This document shows, piece after piece, positions 37,329-47,887 of a stretch of 64,000 bases of DNA. Source of the DNA: Burkholderiales bacterium. Its GTDB lineage: Bacteria; Pseudomonadota; Gammaproteobacteria; Burkholderiales; JACQAP01. Location of the stretch: NCBI GenBank assembly GCA_045810225.1, contig JBJMWI010000087.1, forward strand, positions 7,283-71,282, read 5' to 3'. The position numbers and the translations under genes were made by a program. The notes under the pieces are model-generated. The model was not told the origin of the DNA. It saw only the letters and a program-made list of their open reading frames with translations, and did not search any database. Position 1 is the stretch's first letter, and each line of letters starts with the position of its first letter.

Positions 37329-37415
37329 TGGTGCCGGGAGCCGGAATCGAACCGGCACGCTATTGCTAGCGCGGGATTTTGAGTCCCGTGCGTCTACCAG
37401 TTCCGCCATCCCGGC
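37329..37415 (-). tRNA. tRNA-Leu (anticodon CAA)
   Basis: The minus strand reads GCCGGGATGGCGGAACTGGTAGACGCACGGGACTCAAAATCCCGCGCTAGCAATAGCGTGCCGGTTCGATTCCGGCTCCCGGCACCA. It has a 7-bp acceptor stem, anticodon loop CTCAAAA, a long variable arm, a TPsiC loop GGTTCGATTCC and an encoded CCA. Confidence 0.9.
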
Positions 37416-43604: not shown

Positions 43605-44978
43605 TTACAGGCGCTTTGCCAACGTCTCGGCCAGTCCGATATAGCTTGCTGGTGTAAAAGCGAGCAGACGTTCTTTCTCTGCTGGCGGCAGGCTTAGGCC
43701 GCGGATAAATCCGTGCAAAGCGTCCCGCGTAATGCCGCTCTTGCCACGCGTCAGCGCCTTCAACTGTTCGTAAGCATCGTCTATCCCATAACGCTTCATG
43801 ACGGTCTGAATCGCTTCACCCAATACCTCCCAATTACCAAACAAGTCGTCGGTAAGCCGCTTTGGATCGGGCTCTAATTTATCAAGTCCGCGCAAGCAGG
43901 CATCGTAGGCGAGCAAGCTGTACCCCAGCGCGACTCCCATGTTGCGCAAAACCGTAGAGTCAGTGAGGTCGCGTTGCCAGCGGGAGATTGGAAGCTTGGC
44001 GGATAAGTGCGACAGCAGTGCGTTCGCCAAGCCCAGATTCCCTTCGGAATTCTCGAAATCGATCGGGTTTACCTTGTGCGGCATGGTCGACGATCCAATT
44101 TCACCGTCTTTGATTTTTTGCTTGAAATAGCCGATCGAAATATAACCCCAGGCATCGCGATCGAAATCTAGCAAAACAGTATTGAATGCTGCGAATGCAT
44201 CGAACAACTCTGCAATGCTGTCGTGCGGTTCGATTTGCGTGGTATACGCATTGAATTCAAAACCAAACTTCTCGACGAAATTCCGGCAGAACGATTCCCA
44301 ATCGAAATCCGGAAACGCCGCAAAATGGGCGTTGAAATTACCGACGGCCCCGTTCATTTTTCCGGTTAACGAGACGGCCGATACGCGCGCGCGTTGCCGT
44401 TTGAGCCGATGTACGAAATTCGCCATCTCCTTGCCGAGCGTGCTCGGAGTTGCCGGTTGTCCATGCGTGCGGGATAGCATCGGCAGCGATGCAGTGGAAT
44501 GGGCCAATGCCGTGAGTTTTGCAACGATCGCATCCATGACGGGCATAAGCACTTGCGTCAACGCATCCCGAATCATGAGGGCGTGGCAGAGGTTATTAAT
44601 GTCCTCTGAAGTGCAGGCGAAATGGACAAACCGTGTGATATTGGCTATTTCTGTGTTGTCCGAGAGCTTCTCTTTCAACCAGTATTCAATCGCTTTGACG
44701 TCGTGATTCGTGCGAAGCTCGATTGTTTTCACCGCTTCGCCGTCGCGAACCGTGAAGTCTCGAACCAGCGCATCCAGTTGCATTACCGTAGCTGGCGAAA
44801 GTTGTGGGATGCCGTCTAGTGTCCGCGCTGCACAAAGCGCCTTCAGCCATTCAATTTCGATTCGAATTCGATAACGGATCAACCCGAATTCGCTGAAGTA
44901 GTCAGATAGCCTGGAAACCTTTTCTCGATAGCGCCCATCGAGTGGGCACAGCGCGGTAAGCGGAGAGGACGTCGTCAT
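43605..44978 (-). CDS. purB: adenylosuccinate lyase
   Basis: I prefer the internal Met at 44978 ('MTTSSPLTALCPLDGRY'). It carries the fumarate-lyase signature 'GSSTMPHKVNP'. Confidence 0.9.
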   Translation of the reverse strand: MTTSSPLTALCPLDGRYREKVSRLSDYFSEFGLIRYRIRIEIEWLKALCAARTLDGIPQLSPATVMQLDALVRDFTVRDGEAVKTIELRTNHDVKAIEYWLKEKLSDNTEIANITRFVHFACTSEDINNLCHALMIRDALTQVLMPVMDAIVAKLTALAHSTASLPMLSRTHGQPATPSTLGKEMANFVHRLKRQRARVSAVSLTGKMNGAVGNFNAHFAAFPDFDWESFCRNFVEKFGFEFNAYTTQIEPHDSIAELFDAFAAFNTVLLDFDRDAWGYISIGYFKQKIKDGEIGSSTMPHKVNPIDFENSEGNLGLANALLSHLSAKLPISRWQRDLTDSTVLRNMGVALGYSLLAYDACLRGLDKLEPDPKRLTDDLFGNWEVLGEAIQTVMKRYGIDDAYEQLKALTRGKSGITRDALHGFIRGLSLPPAEKERLLAFTPASYIGLAETLAKRL

Positions 44979-44991
44979 CGGAGCAACTTTA

Positions 44992-46104
44992 TCATGGCGC
45001 GACATGAGGGATGGCTGCATCAATGATGCCACCGCCTAGACAGATGGTCGACTCGTACACGACAACCGATTGGCCTGGCGTGACGGCCCATTGAGGTTCG
45101 GCGAAGCGTATTTCACAAGAAGTGCCATCGACCCGCTCAATTTCGCAAGGCGCATCCTTCTGGCGGTACCGAGTCTTGGCGCCGTATACCCAATTACAGT
45201 GGGGATTCATCCCGCTGATCCACGACAGTTCCCCAGCAGTAAGCGCCTGCGCCAGCAAGGCGGGATGATCATGGCCTTGCACTACGACCAGGCGATTAGA
45301 CGTCATATCCTTGCGGCATACATACCACGGTTCACCAGCTCCTTCGCTGCGTCCGCCGATTCCCAGCCCCTGGCGCTGACCGATTGTGTAATACATCAGA
45401 CCGCTATGCGTCCCAACTACATTTGCCTGCAAGTCCACGATATCACCGGGTTCAATCGGTAAATATCGGCTCAAAAATTCGCGGAACGGCCGTTCGCCGA
45501 TGAAGCAGATTCCCGTTGAGTCTTTCTTGTCGTGATTGGGGAATTTGAGACGGGCCGCGAGATCTCGCACGTCTCGCTTGTACATTTTCCCGAGAGGGAA
45601 AAGCGTGCTGGCTAGCTGAGACTGGTTCAGTCGATAAAGAAAATAACTTTGATCCTTCGTACCATCTTCCGCCTTCAGCAACTGATACATGCCGTCCACT
45701 TGGCGTACTTGGGCGTAATGTCCAGTGGCAATGCGATCGGCACCGAGCTGCAGGGCATGGTCAAGAAAGGCCTTGAATTTGATTTCGGCATTACACAACA
45801 CGTCCGGATTGGGTGTTCGCCCGATCTTGAACTCGGCAAGAAAGCTGTTGAACACACGCTCCTTGTACTCCGCCGAAAAATTCACGGCTTCAATATCGAT
45901 GCCAATGATATCGGCGATGGAAACGGCATCGATCAGGTCCTGGCGTGAATTGCAGTATTCGTCATCATCGTCGTCCTCCCAATTTTTCATGAACAGTCCG
46001 AGTACGTCATAGCCTTGCTGCTTGAGCAGCCAGGCTGCGACCGAAGAGTCCACGCCACCGGACATACCGACAACGATGCGGTTTTTTTTATTCAATCCGC
46101 GCAC
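44992..46104 (-). CDS. mnmA: tRNA 2-thiouridine(34) synthase
   Basis: PP-loop '[10 protein letters not shown]', plus 'ATGHYA' and 'KDQSYFL'. The start is GTG at 46104 or TTG at 46095. Confidence 0.9.
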
Positions 46105-46546
46105 CCAAGTCCACTATGACATCAAGTGGTGTGCTTTTGCCTGCCAAATAATCCTCCAAGCAGCGGATGACAAGGGGGCTACGATGCCTTGCTCGGTTCC
46201 TGCGTACTTCTTCTGCGGTGAGCCATACTGCGCGAACAATTCCGCTATCGAGCGCTCGGTCGGCGTGATGCGCGCCAAGCCGGCCGGAAAATGCAAAGCG
46301 AAGGTAAGTGGTGTCACTGGGAGATGATTGCCATCGATAGACACCAATGAGGCGTTCAGGCACAAATTCCCACGCGCTCTCTTCCAGCACTTCCCTCGCT
46401 ACTGCTGCGATGATCGTTTCGCCAGCTTCAAGGTGTCCCGCCGGCTGATTGAACAGGAGTCCGCCTTCCGTATGCTCCTCAACGAGCAGAAAACGTCCAT
46501 CGCGTTCTATGACCGCGGCAACCGTAACATCAGGCTTCCAGACCAT
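46088..46546 (-). CDS. NUDIX hydrolase
   Basis: I prefer the internal Met at 46546 because it avoids overlap with marC. Nudix box '[22 protein letters not shown]'. Confidence 0.8.
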
Positions 46547-46550
46547 TGGA

Positions 46551-47183
46551 TTAAAGCAACTTGGGAAACAACTCGGTAATTCCCCGGTAAATGTATTCCA
46601 CACCGATTGCGGCGATGATAAGGCCCATCACACGCGTGATGATGTTCATGCCAGTTGTGCCCAATCGCGCCGATATGCGCGTTGCAGCGGCAAATGTCCA
46701 CCATACTGCTATTGCAATTACGGCAGCTGGGATCAGCAGCATGAGTCTATGGACAATGCCTTGCGACTGATGTGTGGCGATAATCATGGTGCTGATCGCA
46801 CCCGGTCCGGCCAGTAACGGAATTCCCAGAGGGACCACCGCCACGGCATCTCGTTCCGCGGCTTCAGCCGCTTCGTCCGGAGTCTGACGAATGCCCGTTT
46901 CGCGCGCTTGCAGCATCGCGATTGCCATTAGCAAGAGCAGTATGCCGCCCGCAATTAAAAAAGAAGGGATGCTGATACCGAAGAAATTCAGCACTTGCGT
47001 ACCAATCAACGCCGCGCTTGCGAGGACGCAGAAAACGGTAATTGCCACAACCTGCGTAATGCGCTGCCGCTCACCATCGGGATAGCCGGTGGTGGTGCCG
47101 AGGAATACCGGAATGCTGGCCACCGGGTCCACAATCGCCAATAGGGCAACAGTCAGCTTGATCAGATTGGTCCATTCGTCCAC
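46551..47183 (-). CDS. MarC family (UPF0056/NAAT) integral membrane protein
   Basis: GTG start with AAGGTG 6 nt upstream. The protein is 210 aa with a 6-TM pattern. 'IDPVASIPVFL' and 'LAGPGAIST' are typical of MarC-family proteins. Confidence 0.8.
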   Translation of the reverse strand: MDEWTNLIKLTVALLAIVDPVASIPVFLGTTTGYPDGERQRITQVVAITVFCVLASAALIGTQVLNFFGISIPSFLIAGGILLLLMAIAMLQARETGIRQTPDEAAEAAERDAVAVVPLGIPLLAGPGAISTMIIATHQSQGIVHRLMLLIPAAVIAIAVWWTFAAATRISARLGTTGMNIITRVMGLIIAAIGVEYIYRGITELFPKLL

Positions 47184-47214
47184 GCGTACACCTTGTGTTT
47201 AGTCGCAAGACGCC

Positions 47215-47247
47215 AAATAAAAAAGGCAGGGCTTTTTAACCCTGCCT
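47215..47247 (-). terminator. rho-independent terminator on the same strand as, and 28 nt upstream of, the marC start
   Basis: The minus strand reads AGGCAGGG-TTAAAAAG-CCCTGCCT followed by TTTTTTATTT. The plus strand has no T-run. Confidence 0.7.
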
Positions 47248-47474
47248 AGCATCGGACTGGCCCCGGGTTACCTGACCCGGTCCTTGGCAGTAACCCATTC
47301 CCACTTTCCTATTTGTCTGGCTAAACCCTATCTTCTCGGGCTGGCAGGTGTGGGTCCAAGTGCACAAGCAGATTCCCGATTGTCGTGGGTACCAGGCAAA
47401 TCTGTGGCCGGTCCCGACTTTTTATTATCGGGAACAGCCGACAGAACCTTTGCGTTGTGCGCAAGGCGCTGGCA

Positions 47475-47503
47475 AGAATAAGGATTTTTCTAGGGGGCGT
47501 CAA
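47475..47503 (-). promoter_or_regulatory. candidate sigma-70 promoter for the marC leader / sRNA
   Basis: The minus strand reads TTGACG-N17-TATTCT. This would give a ~255-nt transcript ending at the 47215-47247 terminator. Confidence 0.3.
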
Positions 47504-47549
47504 ACGACGCGTTCGGCGCCAAAGCACTTACGTTTATCGCGGCCCACTA

Positions 47550-47587
47550 AGAAACAAAGGCAGGGAATTCTTCCCTGCCTTGTTTCT
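47550..47587. terminator. bidirectional terminator (38-nt near-perfect palindrome)
   Basis: AGAAACAAAGGCAGGGAA-TTC-TTCCCTGCCTTGTTTCT has T-rich tails on both strands. It lies 18 nt downstream of the 62-aa gene. Confidence 0.7.
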
Positions 47588-47604
47588 TGCAACCACGTTG
47601 AAAC

Positions 47605-47793
47605 TTACTGCTTCGCCGGAGCCGGCTTTGCAGCATCCGCTGCTGGGGCGGCGGTGTCCTTTTTTGCCTTTTTATTGTGTTTTTTCGACTTGGCGGGCTT
47701 TGCGTCAGCCGGCTTGGCTTCGTCAGCAGCAACCGCCGAGAGCGTTACAGCGGCAAACAGAGCAGCGATCAGCGCCGCGATAATTTTTTTCAT
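47605..47793 (-). CDS. small secreted Ala/Lys/Pro-rich protein
   Basis: The internal ATG at 47793 has GGAGA 7 nt upstream. Signal peptide 'MKKIIAALIAALFAAVTLSAVAA'. The mature part is 39 aa of low complexity ('KPADAKPAKSKKHNKKAKKDTAAPAADAAKPAPAKQ'). Confidence 0.6.
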   Translation of the reverse strand: MKKIIAALIAALFAAVTLSAVAADEAKPADAKPAKSKKHNKKAKKDTAAPAADAAKPAPAKQ

Positions 47794-47887
47794 GCGTTTC
47801 TCCGTTAGTGGGTTCTTCAGGGTGACACAAATCGGTGTCATCGCCTTAACGTCCCGCTGGCGACCCGGTTGACATATTTAGTTACAA

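Follow-up and report, generated by a model that had tools for sequence, protein, structure and literature searches.

Transcription attenuators of the trp, his and pyrBI type carry a regulatory leader peptide of 14-30 codons, and some small RNAs (sRNAs), such as CpxQ from cpxP, originate at the 3' ends of mRNAs that encode periplasmic stress proteins. An earlier note, made from the sequence of a Burkholderiales genome alone, dealt with the DNA upstream of the minus-strand gene marC. This DNA is the 420-nt stretch at 47184-47604 of the window (the whole 64,000-nt piece of contig JBJMWI010000087.1 that was analysed), and it had been read as a riboswitch or attenuator leader of marC, or as a free-standing sRNA. 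Comparison with related loci pointed to another origin: the stretch is very probably the decayed relic of a gene for a small secreted protein, here called ORF2 (open reading frame 2), framed by a promoter, P2, and an intrinsic terminator, T2, that have both been preserved (Table 1).

The minus-strand gene order in the window is aceA, aceB, rluE, gene 1, the 420-nt stretch, marC, a Nudix gene, mnmA and purB. A scan with MarC gave ~35 loci from genomes of uncultured soil Burkholderiales and ~45 from metagenomes, with MarC identities of 69-98%; the relatives compared were metagenome-assembled throughout. Related loci are labelled L001-L122, and WIN denotes the window's own copy. The order rluE, (gene 1), T1, P2, ..., T2, marC, in which T1 is the terminator of gene 1, was kept across the relatives, and nearly all of their intergenic regions shared the promoter GTTTGACGC...TCCTTATTCTT and the terminator AAGGCAGGG...CCCTGCCTTTTT. 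In many loci P2 and T2 enclosed ORF2, a frame of 62-67 codons with a signal peptide. The intact cassette in these relatives comprised P2, a 5' untranslated region (UTR) of ~70 nt, ORF2, whose stop codon lay 25-35 nt upstream of the T2 hairpin, and T2 at the same place as in the window. ORF2 was intact in ~23-25 distinct loci (for example L009:2688-2891, L011, L013 and L029) and was always located between gene 1 or rluE and marC. Its conserved core reads AGVAPN.G.SA..QSGAKIA.PAKP...KDSAK. A profile search with ORF2 retrieved 101 protein clusters, all annotated as 'hypothetical' and without Pfam domains; the family was confined to soil Burkholderiales metagenomes. The ratio of nonsynonymous to synonymous rates (dN/dS) was 0.1-0.35 in most pairs. 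Judged by these comparisons, ORF2 is a real gene, and it represents a previously undescribed secreted-protein family.

The same gene has been deleted, frameshifted or eroded repeatedly, with profile breakpoints that varied by locus. Parsimony on a MarC tree of 56 tips required at least 14 changes between the intact and the non-intact state of ORF2. As far as the tree can tell, ORF2 is dispensable, and the number of its independent losses is about a dozen.

The window very probably holds one of these lost copies. A DNA profile built on the entire cassette matched the window at the promoter and UTR (unit positions 1-94; E = 1e-9) and again at the ORF's 3' end together with the stop codon and T2 (E = 3e-11). 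The former ribosome-binding site and start could be aligned base for base with an intact copy (window, AAGTCGGGACCGGCCACA; L085, AAGACGGGACCTGCCATG), and so could the former last codons and stop (window, CCAAGGACCGGGTCAGGTAA; intact copy, CCAAGGATTCAGCCAAGTAG). From ex-start to ex-stop the window has 138 nt versus 189-204 nt in intact copies, and a deletion of 24-28 nt was located at ~47355/47356. In a seven-way alignment of the closest clade, L177 keeps GGATGGCGTAGCGCCT (..DGVAP..) at the site of this deletion, including GGCGTAGCGCCT, which encodes GVAP. L177, L079 and L002 are graded intermediates toward the window copy. A chain of interior similarity, scored against 1000 dinucleotide shuffles, ran from WIN to L079 (z = 10.3), from L079 to L002 (z = 6.1) and from L002 to the intact copy in L009 (z = 4.7). 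The ex-start codon reads ACA in WIN and L177, AGA in L079 and ATA in L002; since none of the four lineages of this clade has ATG, ORF2 had probably died by the time of their common ancestor. The window copy shows what is expected of a pseudogene: the position and flanks of the intact gene, a broken frame and relaxed constraint.

Substitution rates agreed with this picture. For marC, the proportion of synonymous differences (pS) from the window was 0.28 in L079, the closest distinct relative (MarC 98% identical), and 0.52 in L002. Against L079, the interior of the stretch (47455-47290) had an identity of 66% ungapped and 50% when gaps were counted, compared with a neutral expectation of ~72%, and it was interrupted by indels of 3, 4, 9 and 28 nt; P2 and T2 were 95% and 91% identical. 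Divergence of the interior equals or exceeds that at synonymous sites. No significant similarity was found between the interior of the window and that of L002, and the two could not be aligned, as expected of neutral sequence so far apart. In a sliding-window profile, conservation stood out in two places, at P2 and at T2 and its surroundings, and the rest was neutral. On the evidence of the alignments, P2 and T2 are under purifying selection, as the P2 hexamers and the T2 stem are invariant in 52-56 loci with saturated synonymous sites, some of which have no ORF2.

A P2-type site is by itself at chance level (1 found versus 1.3 expected in shuffles), and P2 occurs once in the window. Its predicted transcription start is at ~47467-47470. 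Across 52 distinct loci, with or without ORF2, TTGACG was invariant and the -10 hexamer nearly so, which makes P2 a credible promoter. The spacing was 17 nt (18 in a few loci), and -11A and -7T never changed; variation was seen in the 5' part of the spacer, a pattern typical of a working sigma-70 promoter. The hexamers were identical between lineages that are ~50% diverged at synonymous sites, with changes in the spacer and the interior. In the lineage of L012, L018 and L096, where P2 abuts T2, the -10 hexamer has drifted to CACTCT or CAATCT. T2 has been deleted as well in L008 and L020, leaving P2 directly facing marC; in L004, L023 and L016 the cassette is absent and marC abuts the upstream gene.

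T2 consists of the stem-loop AGGCAGGG-N8-CCCTGCCT (-17.6 kcal/mol), whose stem can be extended to 10 bp, and, after it, TTTTTTATTT. The stem and T-run were nearly invariant in 56 loci (MarC identity 69-100%), and L030 carries the compensatory variant GGCAGAG/CTCTGCC. T2 is conserved as sequence, beyond pairing alone. With its GC-rich hairpin, its U-run and a conservation that includes a compensatory change, T2 is a predicted intrinsic terminator. Its 3' end lies 36-42 nt from the marC start almost everywhere. L021 is the sole exception; this locus (L021:715-2099) has several hundred extra nucleotides between gene 1 and P2, and ~250 nt between T2 and marC.

T1 has arms of 18 bp with one bulged T (-25.9 kcal/mol, z = -6.9) and is 89-92% identical to its counterpart in L079. 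Most relatives have the same T1 core, and T1 differs in some subclades. Within the 64-kb window the stem AGGCAGGG/CCCTGCCT is confined to T1 and T2, and the remaining terminators are built on other stems. The hairpin core of T1 (47557-47581) and T2 (47224-47247) reads AAGGCAGG(G)/(C)CCTGCCTT in most genomes, and apart from these two sites it was absent from the window and from 225 kb of related loci. A genome-wide motif resembling an uptake sequence was rejected as the source of the GGCAGGG hairpin, which occurs only at T1 and T2; paralogy of gene 1 and ORF2 was likewise set aside, as hhalign aligned only their signal peptides. Gene conversion between the two copies, which are 330 nt apart, and a sequence-specific factor are possibilities for the shared stem.

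Several observations in the earlier note were borne out. The stretch is non-coding in this genome and is bounded by a conserved promoter and a conserved terminator; the strong terminator before marC is there, as are TTGACG-N17-TATTCT at 47503-47475 (at chance level alone, conserved in 52 loci), the upstream palindromic terminator with the stem arms of T2, and the 20-codon ORF at 47298-47236. T2 was correctly described as close to marC, but the distance from its T-run to the marC GTG is 30 nt and not 28 nt. The note had also proposed that marC is transcribed by read-through. Inspection by eye found no conserved sigma-54 or sigma-70 promoter overlapping T2, and no evident conserved -10/-35 pair between T2 and marC in the alignment of 56 loci. 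Read-through is the most plausible route to marC because there is neither room nor a conserved motif for a separate promoter past T2; the conserved antiterminator that might have accompanied it was not found.

From marC onward (43605-47183, minus strand), marC, the Nudix hydrolase gene, mnmA and purB are separated by a 4-nt gap or overlap; the Nudix gene begins 4 nt past marC. This tight packing makes the four genes appear to form one operon. The order resembles that of E. coli rluE-nudJ-mnmA-hflD-purB, but with marC inserted and hflD absent.

We therefore favour the following explanation, whose probability as a whole, with most weight on the relic claim, we put at about 0.7. As the comparisons show, the start codon of ORF2 was lost in the lineage of the window, and the coding part, changing at least as fast as synonymous sites and shortened by deletions, has since passed beyond the reach of direct searches. 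P2 would still fire, and T2 would stop most of its transcripts, giving a non-coding product of ~250 nt that would act in no sequence-specific way. A read-through fraction would feed marC and probably also Nudix-mnmA-purB, and T1 would insulate marC-Nudix-mnmA-purB from transcription coming from rluE and gene 1. P2 and T2 persist in the clade of the window long after the death of ORF2, so P2 must serve something else; because only marC and then, without gaps, Nudix, mnmA and purB lie downstream, P2 may feed marC past T2. This role of P2 is a tentative assignment, for which we would not quite give even odds. The survival of promoter and terminator through each loss of ORF2 suggests that they were co-opted for marC and the housekeeping genes behind it.

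Some results weigh against this explanation. A hidden Markov model (HMM) of the ORF2 protein matched none of the three forward frames of the window, and a DNA HMM of the ORF alone, calibrated with 2000 shuffles, gave no match in the window; direct searches with the ORF2 protein and ORF-only DNA profiles were negative in L079 and L177 too. For this reason the homology of the interior rests on position and on the chain of intermediates, and direct homology is not claimed. In the closest clade, the ~50 nt upstream of T2 are conserved somewhat above neutral. The near-invariance of T2 and the stem that it has in common with T1 are not explained by plain leakiness, and a leftover T2 should decay. 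Furthermore, T2 looks efficient (10 bp, 9 U in 10), so that large read-through would be unexpected without help, and no conserved antiterminator pairing was seen for it by eye.

One alternative is a conditional terminator. In such an arrangement, T2 and perhaps T1 would respond to a condition or to a sequence-specific antitermination or termination factor acting at GGCAGGG/CCCTGCC, which would gate transcription from P2 into marC-nudix-mnmA-purB, and ORF2 would be a dispensable passenger of the gate. That would explain why about a dozen lineages have lost ORF2 and kept P2 and T2, and it fits the conservation of the T2 stem at the sequence level over MarC identities of 69-100%, the same core in T1 of most genomes, the absence of the hairpin elsewhere in the window and in 225 kb of related loci, and the fixed distance from T2 to marC. 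However, there is no known candidate factor, a conserved alternative pairing was not found, and the leader between P2 and T2 ranges among orthologues from ~20 to ~300 nt without common sequence. Selection for hairpin stability alone can hold stems unchanged, T1 differs in some subclades, and there are loci without the cassette (L004, L023 and L016) or without T2 (L008 and L020). We consider such a gate unlikely. It is also improbable that the relic is inert, with P2 inactive or irrelevant, P2 and T2 conserved for reasons unconnected with marC, and marC expressed from a promoter overlapping T2 that has escaped recognition or by general read-through from upstream. In favour of an inert relic, co-transcription from upstream must occur in the cassette-less loci, where marC directly follows rluE or aceB, and the -10 hexamer has drifted in L012, L018 and L096; yet identical P2 hexamers at ~50% synonymous divergence are unlikely without selection, no conserved -10/-35 pair was evident by eye between T2 and marC, and T1, a strong predicted terminator, stands in the way of upstream transcription.

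The two proposals of the earlier note depend on the RNA itself. A functional sRNA, either the ~250-nt transcript from P2 to T2 or a 3' fragment of it, could have evolved from the mRNA of the dead gene. The unit is bounded by a conserved promoter and a Rho-independent terminator, and the leader folds better than shuffles (z = -4 with T2); the excess is slight once T2 is removed (window, z = -2.4; L079, z = -1.6). The last ~50 nt before T2 are conserved above neutral, and the hairpin at 47265-47296, kept in the clade of WIN, L079 and L002 with conservation slightly above neutral, was paired in 89% of cells with one compensatory change from C-G to U-A. When the minimum free energy structure of the window was pair-counted on six sequences, only T2 and this hairpin held, and these counts use a structure derived from the window itself, which inflates them toward the window's structure. 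Against a functional sRNA, the interior changes at least as fast as synonymous sites and has frequent indels, the leaders of ORF-less relatives share nothing except P2 and T2, and the folds predicted for the window and for L079 agree only in one 5' hairpin and the terminator; the 5' arm of the large hairpin at 47432-47399 is gone in L079. No family of Rfam 15 was found at gathering thresholds for the stretch or in 18 related loci, which also agrees with the note's statement that the leader matches no known riboswitch class. With the body of the RNA unconserved in relatives, although it has a promoter and a terminator of its own, the sRNA proposal did not hold up, and we judge it quite improbable. 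For a riboswitch or a leader-peptide attenuator, with the formation of T2 decided by a ligand or by translation of the 20-codon upstream ORF (uORF), the expected sequence of promoter, long leader, terminator and gene is present, and the uORF is preceded by AGGAAAG and has its TAA in the T2 loop. In L079, however, a deletion has removed the ATG of the uORF, and its frame contains CAA TAA, which speaks against uORF-controlled antitermination. The sole upstream CCTGCC able to pair with the 5' arm of T2 (in ACCTGCCAG, ~47350) is CCTGGG in L079. RNAalifold kept the terminator alone in the three closest lineages, with a covariation term of +2.9 (a penalty), and 22 aligned ORF2 5' UTRs had zero consensus pairs, so that structure is conserved at the terminator and no aptamer-like element or covariation supports a leader of this kind. 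An Rfam search of the region with E up to 10 returned only terminator-like hairpin look-alikes at T1 and T2. One of these, PhotoRC-I (plus strand 47558-47604, 27 bits versus a gathering threshold of 45, E = 7.6e-5), was discarded as the T1 hairpin on the wrong strand. The uORF and the other ORFs of the stretch, on both strands, had no Pfam match, and the leader has its homologue in a protein-coding gene. Regulation by a ligand or by uORF translation is thus very improbable. The note had named beforehand a lack of conservation in relatives as the result that would count against its proposals; the interior proved unconserved, and only the terminator structure was kept.

Table 1. Coordinates of the features in and around the stretch upstream of marC (window positions)
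Feature	Position	Strand	Remarks
P2, sigma-70-type promoter	47475..47503; -35 TTGACG 47503-47498, -10 TATTCT 47480-47475	minus	17-nt spacer
Relic ORF2 5' UTR	47406..47469	minus	Former ribosome-binding site GGGA at 47415-47412; aligns with intact UTRs
Relic ORF2 body	47268..47405	minus	ATG now ACA (47405-47403); internal TAG; stop TAA 47270-47268
T2, intrinsic terminator	47214..47247; stem-loop 47247-47224, T-run 47223-47214	minus	Conserved hairpin and T-run
T1, palindromic intrinsic terminator of gene 1	47549..47588	minus	AAGGCAGGGAA/TTCCCTGCCTT core, A- and T-rich flanks
Small hairpin GGGUUACUG...CAGGUAACCC	47265..47296	minus	Around the ancestral stop; conserved in the closest clade only
20-codon uORF	47236..47298	minus	Chance ORF in decayed sequence
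Gene 1	47605..47793 (47793-47605)	minus	Intact 62-aa secreted Lys/Ala/Pro-rich protein, upstream of the stretch
marC with Shine-Dalgarno AAGGTG (47194-47189)	46551..47194; GTG 47183 to 46551	minus	MarC/NAAT-family membrane protein

The product of marC matched Pfam PF01914 (E = 2e-54) and also NAAT/YchE-like NCBIfam models. Its GTG at 47183 is the earliest start available to the ORF, and this column is ATG or GTG in 56/56 related loci. A literature search on marC, ychE and yhgN gave nothing bearing on regulation. The intergenic region was found without differences in two independent assemblies, which rules out an assembly artefact, and a plasmid search gave no match that would indicate a mobile-element origin of the stretch. 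A tRNA gene at 37332-37415 (minus strand) was the sole match in the window at Rfam gathering thresholds.

Gene 1 is 95% identical to its orthologue in L079, with a proportion of nonsynonymous differences (pN) of 0.007. Orthologues were present in ~32 loci, and gene 1 matched no Pfam or NCBIfam family. Upstream of it, at 47823-47886 (minus strand), lies a strongly conserved block, TTGTAAC-N5-TGTCAACC-N16-CGTTA (~34 loci), which begins immediately past the rluE stop and is followed by a 5'-UTR hairpin, TGACAC..GTGTCA, that reads GACGCC..GGGTGTC in another subclade. The AAC-N16-CGT spacing resembles that of promoters of extracytoplasmic function (ECF) sigma factors; if so, it would suggest that gene 1 is responsive to envelope stress.

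How, then, does the locus compare with described systems? As in leader-peptide attenuators, the promoter of its intact relatives is followed by a short ORF, an intrinsic terminator and the gene, with no room for a second promoter. Unlike the peptides of attenuators, ORF2 is a secreted protein of 62-67 aa under purifying selection, its stop lies 25-35 nt before the hairpin with no conserved antiterminator pairing, and the arrangement persists when the ORF is deleted or dead. A long 5' leader that ends in a Rho-independent terminator by the start codon is shared with riboswitch leaders that use terminator platforms, but here there is no conserved aptamer, covariation or Rfam match, the length varies from ~20 to ~300 nt, and the leader is coding-derived. 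As in sRNAs of the CpxQ type, conservation falls on the 3' end, with a short hairpin and terminator, of the present or past mRNA of a small exported protein; unlike in CpxQ, no seed-like sequence is found family-wide, and conservation before T2 is weak and limited to one clade. ORF2 itself resembles the acid-shock periplasmic protein Asr (NCBIfam NF033636) in being small, with a signal peptide, and Ala/Lys/Pro-rich. The Asr model hit 3/11 ORF2 members sub-threshold (best E = 3.6e-5, 24.5 bits; cut-off 50 bits), and ORF2 was not assigned to Asr because the scores are far under 50 bits and the similarity is compositional.

The closest likeness is to a bacterial pseudogene: the stretch is the positional orthologue of an intact gene, has lost its start, is disrupted by deletions and an internal stop, changes at least as fast as synonymous sites, and is seen as no ORF by gene callers. 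In a single genome, the promoter, the terminator, the low folding energy and the uORF mimic a riboswitch or an sRNA, which calls for caution; comparison with relatives exposes the apparent leader as a dead gene. The locus differs from the usual pseudogene in that P2 and T2 are nearly invariant and that about a dozen separate losses of the same gene have occurred in the family, and it may be a simple case of regulatory elements that have outlived their gene.

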